Of a stretch of 64,000 nucleotides of DNA, positions 56,862-59,800 are shown one piece after another. The stretch is from the NCBI RefSeq assembly GCF_020073745.1, contig NZ_JAIRAU010000002.1, positions 81,694 to 145,693 of the forward strand, in the 5' to 3' direction. How positions within the stretch are numbered: position 1 is the first letter of the stretch; every line of letters starts with the position of its first letter. The notes beneath the pieces are model-generated. The model saw only the letters and a program-made list of their open reading frames with translations, searched no databases and was not told the DNA's origin. The DNA comes from Nannocystis pusilla (GTDB lineage: Bacteria > Myxococcota_A > Polyangia > Nannocystales > Nannocystaceae). The position numbers were made by a program, and so were the translations under genes.

Positions 56862-59800
56862 ATGTCCACGCCGCCCCACACGCCGCCCGACACACCGTCC
56901 GCCCGCGGCGCAGGTGCGGGCACGTGGGCCGACGTCGACGTCCATCGTCTCCACGCACGGGTCATGGGCCGACTGTTCGGCGAGCCCGCCGCGCCCACCA
57001 CCATCGGCCGTTTTCGCGTCGAGCAGCGGCTCGGGGCGGGGGCCATGGGCGTCGTGTATGCGGCCGTCGACGCCCAACTCGGCCGCCGCGTGGCGATCAA
57101 GTTGCTGCACCCGCACCTCCAGGGCGACGAGCAGGGCCGCGCCCGTCTGCTGCGTGAGGCCCGGGCGATGGCCCGCCTCGAGCACGAGCACGTGGCGCGG
57201 ATCTACGAGGTCGGCGCGTGGGGCGAGCAGGTCTACATCGCCATGGAATTGATCGAGGGCGTGACCCTCGAGGCCTGGCTGCGCGAGCGCCCGCGGCCGT
57301 GGCACGCGGTGCTCACGGTGTACCTGCAGGCCGGGCGGGCGCTGGCCGCGGCTCACCACGCGGGCCTGCTCCACCGCGACTTCAAGCCCGAGAACGTGCT
57401 CGTCGACAACCGCGGCCGCGCCCGCGTCCTCGACTTCGGCCTCACCTGCGCCCTCGATGCCGGCGAGAGCCTCGACGACGAGCTCGAGCCGCTGACGCGC
57501 ACGGGCAGCATCCTCGGCACGCCCGCCTACATGGCGCCCGAGCAGCAGCGCTACGGCGCCGCCGAGCCGCGCTCCGATCAGTTCAGCTTTTGCGTCGCGC
57601 TGTTCGAGGGGCTGTTCGGCCTGCGCCCGTTCGGCTCGGTTCCGCGCTTCGGGCAGGTCGAGATCGCACCGATTCCGCGCAACAGTCGCGTGCCACCGCG
57701 CATCCGCCGCGCGATCGCCCGCGGCCTGTCCGAAAAGCCCGACGCCCGCTGGCCGACGATGGACGACCTCCTGGCCGCCCTGCAGCCGCCGCGGCGGTTC
57801 GCCCGCGAGCCCGGGGCGGGTCGCGGGCGGACGGTCCTGATCGCCGGCGGAGCGGCCGCGGCCGCCGCCGGGCTGGTCGCGCTCGGGGTGAGCCTGGCCC
57901 AGCCCGAGGCAGGCCCGGCCGCGTCGGGCGAGGGGCCGCCGGCGAGCGTCGGCGAGGTCGCGCCCGTCGACGAGCTCGCGGCCGAGCGCGCGGCCGCCGA
58001 ACGCCACGCCCAGGCGCTGCGGGTCCGCGACGCCGCGTTCTCGCTGCTGCCGCGCGACCCGACGACCGCGGCGCTGCTGCTGCGCGAGCTCGACGACCCC
58101 GGGGCGCTGGCGCAGCGGGTGCTGGCCGAGCCGATCAGCGCGGCGATCCTGCGCGGTCACGAGGGGCCGGTGCTGGCGGTGCGCTGGGTCGAGGCGACGG
58201 GTGGAGCTGTCCCTGGGGACAGGCAAGATCCGGCCGGCGCAGAGGCTGTCCCTGGGGACAGCTTCGAGCGGGGCGAAGGCGCGCCTGTCCCTCGGGACAG
58301 CCACGCGATCGAGACCGTCGACGCCGCCGGGGGGCTGCGCCGGTTCGCCGCCAGCGGCGGCCCGGCGAGCGCGTCCGCCCGCGCGCCCGCGTTCGACCCG
58401 CGGCGCGGCCCGGCCGGCGAGCAGCTGCGGACCGACGCGCGCGGGCAGGTCTCGCTCGAGGCGGGCGGGCGCGTCGTCGCCCTGCGCGGCGTCAGCGGCC
58501 CGCTCGCCGCCGTCGCCTGGAGCCCGGACGGAGCGCAGGTGGCGGCGGCCGGGCCGCGCGGCGAGGTCTGGCTGATCGCCGAGGGCCGCGCGCTGGCGAT
58601 CGGCGATCGGGGCCCGGCCGTCGGCGCGCTCGCGTGGGACCGCTCCGGCCGCCAGCTGGCGATCGGCCGCGACGACGGCGGGGTCGACGTCTGGCGCGTC
58701 GACGGCCGCGCGCGCCGGGTGTTCGCGGTGGTCGGCGACGGCGGCGTCACGAGTCTGGCCTTCGGGACAGGTTGGCTGGCCGGCGGCAGCGACGACGGCA
58801 GCGCGCGCGTGTGGCGGCTCGGCGGCGCGGCGCGGCCGTACGTGCTGCGCGGGCACACCGGCCCGGTGCGGGCCCTGGCGTTCGCGCCGACCGGCGTCCG
58901 CCTGGTCACCGGCAGCGACGACGGCAGCGCGCGGGTCTGGCGGCTCACGCCGGCGGCCCTGCGCGAGCACGACGTCGGCGCGGCCGTGCACGCGGTCGCG
59001 TGGAGCCCCGACGGCGCCCGGCTCGCGGCGGCCGGGGTGCGCAGCGTGTGGTTGCTGCCGGCCGACGGCGGTCCGGTGCGCCGCCGCGACCACGCCGGCA
59101 CCGCGCTCGCGCTGGCCTGGCGCCCCGACGGCCAGGAGCTGGCGATCACCGACGACTCCGGCGCGATCACCTGGCTGCCCGTCGGCGCGGGCGCGACCCG
59201 GCGCGTGGCCGTCGATCGCCGGTCCGTGCCCGCGCTCGCGTGGGACCCCCGCACCGATCGCCTGGCCGCCGGCGGCAGCGACGGCAGCTTTTCTATCTGG
59301 CCTTCAGGGCATGTCTCCGAGAACATGCCCGATCCGACTCGCGCCGCGCAGGGCCGGGGGCCGATCACCGCGCTGGCGTGGTCGCCGGTCGACGAGCGCC
59401 TGGCGGCCGTGACCGCGACCGGCTTCGTGCTGGTGCGCGTCGAGCAGACCGTGTTCATCGAGCTGGGCCAGCCGCTGCGCGCGCTGGCCTGGAGCCCCGC
59501 CGGCGACGCGCTCGCGGTCGCGGGCGAGGGCAGGGCGCTGGTGCGGATCGCGGCGGCCACCGGGGTGCGCAGCGAGGTCGGACGCGCCGGCGCGCCGCTC
59601 GACAGCGTCGCCTGGGATCCGCAGGGGGCGTGGATCGCCGCCGGTGCGGCCGACGGCGAGCTCCACTTCTGGTCGCTGCAGGGCGACGACGGCCCCGAGG
59701 TGCTCGCGGGCCACGGCGCCGGCGTGCACGCGCTCGCCTTCGACGCGCGCGGCGACCGCCTGGCCTCGGCCGGCGCCGACGGCCGCGTCGTCGTCTGGCC

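Follow-up and report, generated by a model that had tools for sequence, protein, structure and literature searches.

Why should a short palindrome recur, in frame and almost unchanged, inside the coding sequence of a bacterial protein kinase? The question is raised by 64,000 nt of Nannocystis pusilla DNA (about 73% G+C; this whole stretch is called the window below), in which a gene for a Ser/Thr protein kinase with a WD40 β-propeller carries three such palindromes. The answer that we consider probable is that they form an in-frame array of a short palindromic repeat found throughout the genus, similar to the repetitive extragenic palindromes (REPs) and bacterial interspersed mosaic elements (BIMEs) and, inside genes, to the Rickettsia palindromic elements (RPEs). 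Few bacteria have genomes as large as those of the myxobacteria, whose repeat content has been little studied.

Three palindromes in a kinase gene

In the protein encoded by the host gene, Pfam recognizes a Pkinase domain at residues 52-258 and WD40/β-propeller sequence at residues ~540-990; the protein is 100% identical to one listed by NCBI under N. pusilla. The gene, its insert and the palindromes (listed without a strand) are given below; phase 1 denotes the register xCT GTC CNN NNG GAC AGx, which reads [A/P]VPxD[S/R] and is the sole phase that is identical on both strands.

56862-59954, plus strand: open reading frame (ORF) of the Ser/Thr protein kinase with WD40 β-propeller, 1030 amino acids, syntenic with the orthologous loci L001-L003
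58200-58304, plus strand: in-frame insert of ~35 codons (GGAVPGDRQDPAGAEAVPGDSFERGEGAPVPRDSH), a three-unit array with a 39-bp period, lineage-specific, in the turn between strands A and B of the first WD40 blade
58207-58222: palindrome copy 1, CTGTCCCTGGGGACAG, codons GCT GTC CCT GGG GAC AGG (AVPGDR), phase 1
58246-58261: palindrome copy 2, CTGTCCCTGGGGACAG, AVPGDS, phase 1
58285-58300: palindrome copy 3, CTGTCCCTCGGGACAG, PVPRDS, phase 1

A preliminary description of this DNA had reported near-identical palindromes within the kinase ORF, translated as AVPGD-type peptides, and both statements are borne out: CTGTCCCTGGGGACAG occurs twice and CTGTCCCTCGGGACAG once, the start-to-start distance is exactly 39 bp (13 codons), and the peptides are AVPGD, AVPGD and PVPRD. 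Chance as the source of the palindromes is excluded, with 10 matches in the window at up to two mismatches and 0.05 expected from 100 dinucleotide-preserving shuffles. The 118 nt at 58195-58312 fold at -78.1 kcal/mol as RNA (z = -6.6), a value equalled by none of 200 shuffles. The 39-bp array was missed by Tandem Repeats Finder, the spacers between the palindromes being too divergent. The insert was also considered as a single large palindrome, and this was rejected by eye, since only 10 of 23 positions agree when spacer 1 is set against spacer 2 in reverse complement.

A variable loop of the first WD40 blade

The palindromes had been assigned to the linker between the kinase domain and the propeller, and this location did not hold. 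In an AlphaFold2 model of the host kinase (31 homologues used; mean predicted local distance difference test score, pLDDT, of 79.9), the residues of the insert, 448-478, have pLDDT below 50, while the β-strands on either side, 437-444 (VLAVRWVE) and 481-487 (HAIETVD), reach about 90. The same two strands are linked by a four-residue turn in 25 more distant homologues (e.g. VRALSF-DAGG-ALVIAA), which places the insert in the turn between strands A and B of the first blade, outside the long linker that precedes the propeller. In the model, the array lies within a disordered loop of the first WD40 blade, bounded by first-blade strands in the order VLAVRWVE, insert, IETVDAA.

Comparison with orthologous kinases shows that the insert is confined to a lineage. 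The residues between the flanking anchors number 37-40 in the 25 distant homologues, 76 in the window protein and 168-235 in sister Nannocystis strains and species, a contrast that makes the insert both lineage-specific and variable in length. It is absent from two more distant orthologues (58-61% identity; P0008 and P0009) as well as from the 25 other homologues. Three orthologous loci were compared in detail, from N. exedens (L001), a second N. pusilla strain (L002) and N. bainbridge (L003). The neighboring genes are identical in kind at each locus (RsgA, a WG-repeat protein, an ECF sigma factor and the downstream genes), and the proteins carry inserts of 100-190 residues at the site of the window insert; the insert is four to six times longer in the sister strains. 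The DNA of these inserts contains 7-9 copies of CTGTCC-N4-GGACAG, with every spacing a multiple of 3. No orthologue was seen to have the peptide in the absence of palindromic DNA, a case that would have refuted the earlier interpretation: the palindromes are present in the DNA of close orthologues, and distant ones lack the peptide.

The first and the last two copies are orthologous across the four genomes, with invariant arms and with differences in the four loop bases and the spacers; copies 2 and 3 of the window correspond to the penultimate and last copies in L001-L003. Copy number ranges from 3 to ~9 among sister strains and species, and since the window strain has just three copies, either its array has contracted or the others have expanded. 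All three window loops start with CT (giving the rare Pro codon CCT), and the orthologous copies have CCG or CCC; the shared CT start suggests homogenization within the window array.

Two further orthologues, P0007 and P0010, each from a different N. pusilla assembly, have frameshifts or truncations (lengths of 1049 and 767 amino acids). The out-of-frame stretches lie upstream of the array in P0010 and near the C-terminus in both, and reflect either pseudogenization or indel errors of long-read sequencing.

Conservation of the DNA rather than the peptide

Codon usage provides a way to ask which of the two, palindrome or peptide, has been kept. In the window genes, GCT accounts for 2.9% of Ala codons, CCT for 3.8% of Pro codons and AGG for 2.6% of Arg codons. 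Nevertheless, the codon ahead of GTC is NCT in all three window copies (GCT, GCT, CCT), and of the 20 Arg codons in the insert of L001, 8 are AGG. The residue that precedes V differs from copy to copy (A, P, T, D or N) over nucleotides that stay CT (or AT). A residue that varies over constant nucleotides, together with the use of rare codons, shows that the palindrome is conserved and that the peptide follows from it. The arms are the same from species to species, in contrast to the loop, the spacers and even the encoded residue.

These data also bear on an explanation in which the peptide [A/P]VPxD[S/R] is itself the unit of selection, as a short linear motif or linker repeat, with the palindrome as a side effect of its codons. 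Such an explanation would account for the 75% of ORF copies that lie in the peptide-giving phase (see below), and for a composition rich in P, S, D and A like that of disordered linkers. It is already contradicted, however, by arrays of the same 16-mer outside ORFs, with periods of 35, 38, 50 and 21/22 bp. Furthermore, the other two phases (LSxGT and CPxGQ) occur too, the codons needed are used at only ~3%, and the residue before V varies over constant nucleotides; we find selection on the peptide scarcely credible.

A repeat family of the genus Nannocystis

Relatives of the kinase array were sought in one genome per species, 185,579 species in all, by scanning for two exact palindromes 10-40 nt apart. 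At least 120 stretches were found, and among those listed, 93 of 120 came from 11 Nannocystis or Nannocystaceae assemblies: pusilla, exedens, punicea, radixulma, bainbridge, RBIL2 and five metagenome-assembled genomes (MAGs). The family is present at many loci of every Nannocystis assembly sampled. The Nannocystis loci analysed further (~775 kb) belong to the stretches listed and were chosen for their arrays; they hold 376 exact and 267 one-mismatch copies.

The core of the family can be written S-CTGTCC-N4-GGACAG-S, with S and then Y as the flanks. Within the arm, T2, G3 and C5 are nearly invariant, position 1 varies from C to A, position 4 from T to G or C, and position 6 from C to T. The base next to each arm is never A on the left and never T on the right. 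Extension of the stem past the 6-bp arms is not above chance (mean 0.44-0.56 bp), and the long palindromes found at some stop codons are a subset. Among compensatory double changes, only ATGTCC...GGACAT is enriched (22 vs ~3 expected), the others being at background. Covariation limited to position 1 suggests that the arms are recognized as sequence and not merely as a stem.

Whether the reading frame is kept could also be followed across these loci, and it generally is. Spacings between neighbors less than 150 bp apart are multiples of 3 in 319 of 397 cases (80%; a few loci from outside Nannocystis are counted in), and of 76 arrays that contain at least three copies, 54 keep one register throughout. 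At least 44 of these 54 are located in long ORFs with coding-type G+C content at third codon positions (GC3). Another 16 of the 76 do not keep register and lie outside any ORF. Among the arrays that are clearly non-coding are a 50-bp unit repeated six times (L091), a 35-bp unit repeated four times that carries the window 18-mer GCTGTCCCTGGGGACAGG (L123), and an array with a 21/22-bp period that begins 2 nt past a TGA (L078). With genes called crudely from the GC3 of ORFs, 240 of the ORF copies (75%) are in phase 1, 53 in phase 0 (LSxGT) and 29 in phase 2 (CPxGQ). Phase 1 would presumably cost the fewest rare codons, and gives a peptide rich in Pro, Ser and Asp.

The proteins that host arrays are unrelated to one another: besides the window kinase they include a transglutaminase/HATPase protein, two other kinases, two HEAT-repeat proteins, a cytochrome c and a TPR protein, and in these other hosts the arrays are located between Pfam domains. 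By the same crude gene calls, 144 of 207 clusters in the array-selected loci are intragenic and 63 intergenic; in the window, which was not selected for arrays, 9-10 of 15 copies are intragenic. Inversion between palindromes, as in a shufflon, was considered and rejected, since all units in the arrays examined are direct repeats.

Individual arrays show some further features. In the 1403-residue TPR protein of L059, positions 4356-4534 contain seven successive 27-bp units, GCGACACCTGTCCCGGAGGACAGCAAG (ATPVPEDSK), of which six are perfect and the seventh is one base off (CTT for CCT, giving ATLVPEDSK), evidence of very recent tandem amplification. Phase-2 arrays in L076 (4349-4470), L115 (7666-7817) and L123 (3704-3825) would encode Cys-rich TCPxGQ repeats in putative ORFs.

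The 27 listed stretches from outside Nannocystis were considered as the same element and proved instead to be unrelated families or operator-like pairs. Actinomadura, Nocardia, Spirillospora, Nocardioides and Pseudonocardia (L044, L053, L063, L065, L107, L119, L022) have intergenic pairs of TTCCTGTCC-N4-GGACAGGAA about 40 bp apart, which look like conserved double operators; their loops start with A and end with T, both avoided by the Nannocystis family. Opitutales/Opitutia MAGs (L058, L085, L097) carry a GTAG-tagged REP, GTAGGCCTGTCCGTGAGGACAGGG, with the same CTGTCC...GGACAG core as in Nannocystis. Opitutus terrae has been reported to contain the most intragenic GTAG REPs (PMC3733652). Lineage-specific repeats built on the same core were also seen in Candidatus Eisenbacteria MAGs (AACTGTCC-N4-GGACAGTT; L027, L035, L055, L066, L073, L080) and in a Clostridia MAG (TTCTTCTGTCCTGGCGGACAG; L007, L010, L051).

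Copies between genes

The intergenic members of the family are found mainly behind genes. Of the 63 intergenic clusters, 29 lie between convergent genes, which account for 18% of intergenic length, 33 between tandem genes, and a single one between divergent genes, which account for 21% of the length. These clusters lie at a median distance of 20 nt from the 3' end of a gene and 249 nt from a 5' end, a distribution that argues against a promoter-operator role. Among the 41 copies within 12 nt of a stop codon, 32 follow TGA, and the most common arrangement (12 copies) is a start exactly 1 nt after the stop. The combination TGA-S-CTGTCC is found in 6.7% of copies vs 0.9% for the background. Several of the stop-adjacent copies are 24-bp palindromes of the form TGA-S-CTGTCC-N4-GGACAG-S-TCA, with one stop for each strand. 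Two such copies, at 5925 and 17283, are found in the window, and the register next to the stop is once again phase 1.

At gene ends the hairpin would probably act as a bidirectional 3'-end stem-loop, either as a terminator or as a stabilizer of mRNA. No U-tract follows the hairpins (the share of T is 2-21% for positions +1 and +3 to +10 of the flank), which departs from the pattern of a canonical intrinsic terminator. UUCG- and GNRA-type loops are present among the non-coding copies. A search of the window against Rfam 15 gave no match at gathering score, the other hit being a chance microRNA match (E = 0.79).

The position of intergenic members where 3'-end stem-loops are expected, the UUCG/GNRA-type loops and the strong predicted fold of the 118-nt kinase segment could also be taken to mean that the array works as RNA within the kinase gene itself, by slowing the ribosome between the kinase and propeller parts, by attenuating transcription or by setting the half-life of the mRNA. 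Several observations make this improbable in our judgment. The variation from 3 to ~9 copies among close relatives and the absence of the segment from other orthologues mean that a regulatory role specific to this gene is not conserved, and the same arrays are found in unrelated proteins. Furthermore, the arms are invariant in sequence and do not covary, and neither the U-tract nor an Rfam match was found.

Possible recognition by a DNA-binding protein

The properties of the arms invite a further explanation, in which the palindromes are sites for a dimeric LuxR/GerE-type helix-turn-helix (HTH) protein or for another sequence-specific protein (a nucleoid-associated-like protein or a global regulator) that would coat hundreds to thousands of them, with the peptide as a by-product. 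This explanation is compatible with that of a repeat family, and the kinase array would then be a functional cluster of sites. The family has the same 16-bp consensus, CTGNCC-N4-GGNCAG, as the lux-type box of CviR/CsuR, including the degenerate fourth position: it is identical to the ideal CviR site, CTGNCCNNNNGGNCAG, and the site in the csuI promoter, CTGTCCGATAGGACAG, would qualify as an exact Nannocystis family member (PMC12114271). The Nannocystis repeats likewise have an invariant CTG.C and a variable position 4. The dyad consists of two 6-bp half-sites one helical turn apart, its sequence is conserved specifically and with little covariation, no A or T is tolerated next to the arms (A on the left, T on the right), and the actinobacteria have the same core as paired, operator-like sites. 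The identity with the CviR box suggests a concrete binding hypothesis, one that comes from sequence comparison.

The distribution of the copies makes this explanation rather unlikely. Promoters are avoided, with one of the 63 clusters between divergent genes and a median of 249 nt to the 5' end as against 20 nt to the 3' end, and most copies are in ORFs or directly behind stop codons. Whereas a genome has a few lux boxes, located upstream of promoters, copies of the Nannocystis repeat run to hundreds or thousands, and tandem arrays with 21-70 bp periods and thousands of sites are atypical of a transcription factor regulon. No cognate protein has been identified.

Other copies and palindromes in the window

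Beyond the kinase array, the window as a whole is rich in the family. The pattern CTGTCC-N(2-7)-GGACAG with at most one mismatch is found 17 times, compared to 1.45 in Markov shuffles, and 15 of the 17 have a 4-nt loop. The individual copies, again listed without a strand, are the following.

5925-5940: GTGTCCCGAAGGACAG, 1 nt past a TGA, the stop of gene 5942-6910 of the minus strand (minus-strand reading: TGA c CTGTCCTTCGGGACAC)
8444-8459: exact copy CTGTCCGAAGGGACAG, within a VWA-domain protein, where it occupies a hypervariable loop; LSEGT, phase 0
16613-16628: CTGTCCCGAAGGACAT, within ORF 15973-17160; AVPKDM, phase 1
17048-17063: ATGTCCCGATGGACAG, within ORF 15973-17160; HVPMDR, phase 1
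17283-17298: ATGTCCGCCAGGACAG, 1 nt past the TGA stop of the minus-strand ORF 17300-19117
23209-23224: ATGTCCTTCGGGACAG, an ATGTCC variant
29899-29914: one-mismatch copy CTGGCCCGAGGGACAG, followed by GTCA
37531-37546: one-mismatch copy CTGGCCGCAGGGACAG, within ORF 35902-38376; LAAGTG, phase 0
40674-40689: intergenic copy CTGTCCCAAGGGACAT
52061-52076: ATGTCCGGGCGGACAG, no ORF called over the copy
58755-58770: one-mismatch relative CTGGCCTTCGGGACAG, within a WD40 blade of the kinase; LAFGTG, phase 0; orthologues keep CTGGCTCTCGGGACAG, and membership of the family is uncertain
63361-63376: intergenic copy ATGTCCGAAAGGACAG

The ATG of the copy at 23209 may be the start codon of the downstream ORF (MSFGTAGAE...), and if it is the true start, the repeat can furnish start as well as stop codons. 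Two motif-like half-sites, GTCCCTCGGGACATGG...CATGTCCTTATGGGCAT, are found at 20369-20410, at the start of ORF 20365-21792, and have the GGACATG/CATGTCC flavor of the ATGTCC subfamily.

One additional palindrome of the kinase gene had been grouped with the three described above:

59308-59331, no strand: 24-bp palindrome GGGCATGTCTCCGAGAACATGCCC (GHVSENMP), with 8-bp perfect arms, in a propeller loop

Its presence was confirmed, and its inclusion in the same phenomenon was not. Perfect 8-bp stems with loops of up to 8 nt occur 74 times in the window vs 35-63 in Markov shuffles, the local fold z-score is -0.8, and three orthologues have the non-palindromic sequence GGACATGACTTCAAGGACATGCTC (GHDFKDML) at the site. 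The corresponding residues, 814-825, are not in a strand and have a pLDDT of ~74. Six of the 24 nt differ specifically in the window, three of these differences completing the stem. An origin by template switching was considered and found to be unsupported, since at 16% divergence about one quarter of 24-nt windows have six or more differences. The palindrome is strain-specific, falls within chance expectation and has not been shown to belong to the repeat family. Just upstream of it is a family-like sequence, CTGGCCTTCAGGGCAT (CTGGCCTTCGGGACAT in L002), whose membership is not established; it also resembles the 19-mer at 58754, which has another reading frame.

Two further features of the region can be recorded. 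About 60 nt upstream of the ATG of the next gene, at 60365, there is an intergenic 22-bp palindrome, GCCTTGCATG-TG-CATGCAAGGC (60281-60302), with 10-bp perfect arms and the look of an operator. In addition, the G+C content drops to 0.65 within 44001-48000, compared to 0.70-0.76 over most of the window, and this segment may have been acquired horizontally.

Origin and spread of the repeat

As part of the genus-wide repeat family, the kinase array would have begun with a single entry of the repeat into the loop, in an ancestor of the N. pusilla/exedens/bainbridge group. Slippage, or unequal recombination among the hairpin-forming units, would later have lengthened and shortened the array, and the units within each array would have been homogenized. 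The peptide would be a tolerated passenger, with selection merely filtering for frame, phase and a permissive location, and the arms would owe their upkeep not to generic hairpin stability but to a reader of DNA or RNA sequence, such as a protein or a process of copying.

Several observations weigh against this explanation. The exact copy at 8444 sits in a loop of the same length as in the orthologues and thus entails no net insertion, so that simple cut-and-paste or copy-and-paste cannot explain every copy. An orthologue with 90% identity has CTGTCCGAAGAGACAG at the 8444 site, and orthologues with 82-84% identity have unrelated sequence; patch replacement or substitution therefore accounts for at least some copies. 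The kinase array, unlike the 8444 copy, is a net insertion. No Y1/HUH-like ORF of the kind encoded by REP-associated tyrosine transposase (RAYT) genes is flanked by copies in the ~775 kb of sampled loci, where only four ORFs of 100-400 amino acids are so flanked, none of them transposase-like (PP2C-like, PdxJ-like and others). The tags of known REPs are absent as well: GTAG is found within 10 nt of 2.1% of 375 exact copies vs 2.5% for the background, and CGTC at 8.3% of exact copies vs 13%. A function would account for the long-lasting constancy of the arms between species no less well than neutral or selfish persistence. Finally, the choice of loci for their arrays and the crude gene calls affect the counts, phases and intergenic statistics on which the description of the family draws.

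The original suggestion of selfish insertion into tolerant regions, or of a function at the DNA or RNA level, is supported. The insert is lineage-specific and keeps the frame, as both of the checks proposed with that suggestion required, and conservation is at the level of DNA; selfishness in the sense of active movement would be hypothetical, no transposase having been found in the sampled loci. One speculative proposal, which we hold to be doubtful, would join function and spread: the dyad would be the recognition site of a dedicated Nannocystis protein, either of the LuxR type with an HTH or an unrecognized nuclease or recombinase, that upholds the arms and drives their spread both by insertion and by short-patch replacement, in a fixed codon register. 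If this were true, TGA-S-CTGTCC-N4-GGACAG-S-TCA would be a new self-propagating "stop-plus-hairpin" module with stops on both strands, which remodels the 3' ends of genes and, after loss of the stop, seeds hypervariable peptide arrays in proteins.

Significance and comparison with known systems

The repeat provides a case of a REP-like palindrome that is mostly intragenic and is kept at the DNA level, against strong codon bias, beyond the divergence of species. It creates strain-variable disordered segments in kinases, HEAT and TPR proteins, cytochrome c and others, and its "PVPxDS" repeats should accordingly not be taken as functional protein motifs. The hypervariable arrays are ready markers for the typing of Nannocystis, and the family offers a tractable case for the study of how short palindromes spread and persist, whether by transposase, conversion or protein binding. 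No description of the repeat, for Nannocystis or other myxobacteria, was found in the literature searched; the family is REP/RPE-like, without GTAG or CGTC tags and, as far as that search goes, previously undescribed.

Inside genes, the closest counterpart would be the RPEs. These were reportedly described by Ogata et al. in 2000 as in-frame elements in many unrelated protein-coding genes, and they are mentioned in PMC3733652. RPE-1 is ~100-150 bp long and inserted as single units. The Nannocystis repeat is similarly in frame, absent from orthologues, located at fold-compatible sites and translated as an extra peptide. It differs in its 16-bp core, its tandem arrays and its variable period (21-70 bp) and copy number, and the two occur in unrelated organisms with no sequence similarity.

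Another comparison is with HIP1 (GCGATCGC) of cyanobacteria, an 8-bp uninterrupted palindrome that is over-represented in coding and non-coding DNA with a phase bias, and that may spread at least partly by substitution and not by insertion. The copy at 8444 fits such a mode of spread. In contrast to the Nannocystis repeat, HIP1 is not known to form regular arrays or to be concentrated at stop codons. Minisatellites of coding regions (variable number tandem repeats, VNTRs, e.g. repeats of the mycobacterial interspersed repetitive unit, MIRU, type) are tandem in-frame arrays with strain-variable copy number, much like the kinase array with its 3 vs ~7-9 copies between strains. Unlike VNTRs, the Nannocystis repeat keeps nothing but its palindromic core from unit to unit and from locus to locus, with differing spacers, and the same core recurs throughout the genome. 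A CRISPR array (non-coding, with repeats of 23-47 bp, unique spacers about as long as these, a leader and usually cas genes) was considered and rejected on the basis of the 16-bp core, the 21-70 bp periods, the location of many arrays in long ORFs and the repetition of spacers in several of them (cas genes were not sought).

The REP/BIME elements are, with the RPEs, the nearest relatives in behavior. They too are short GC-rich palindromes in high copy number, found singly or in regularly spaced clusters, and the intergenic Nannocystis copies share their location downstream of genes, between convergent and tandem genes. Intragenic REPs were catalogued by Di Nocera et al. (2013, PMC3733652): they are a minority of REPs, their clusters encode 43-82 residues, and flexible loops or linkers were proposed as their place in the protein. 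In addition, the ends of REPs often give a flanking ORF its stop, namely the TAG of the GTAG tag (PMC3733652), just as an end of the Nannocystis element supplies the TGA in TGA-S-CTGTCC. The Nannocystis core differs in being only 16-18 bp and near-perfectly symmetric, so that neither an orientation nor a doublet of the REPIN (REP doublet forming hairpin) kind can be defined, and its copies are mostly intragenic with a strong preference for a single phase.

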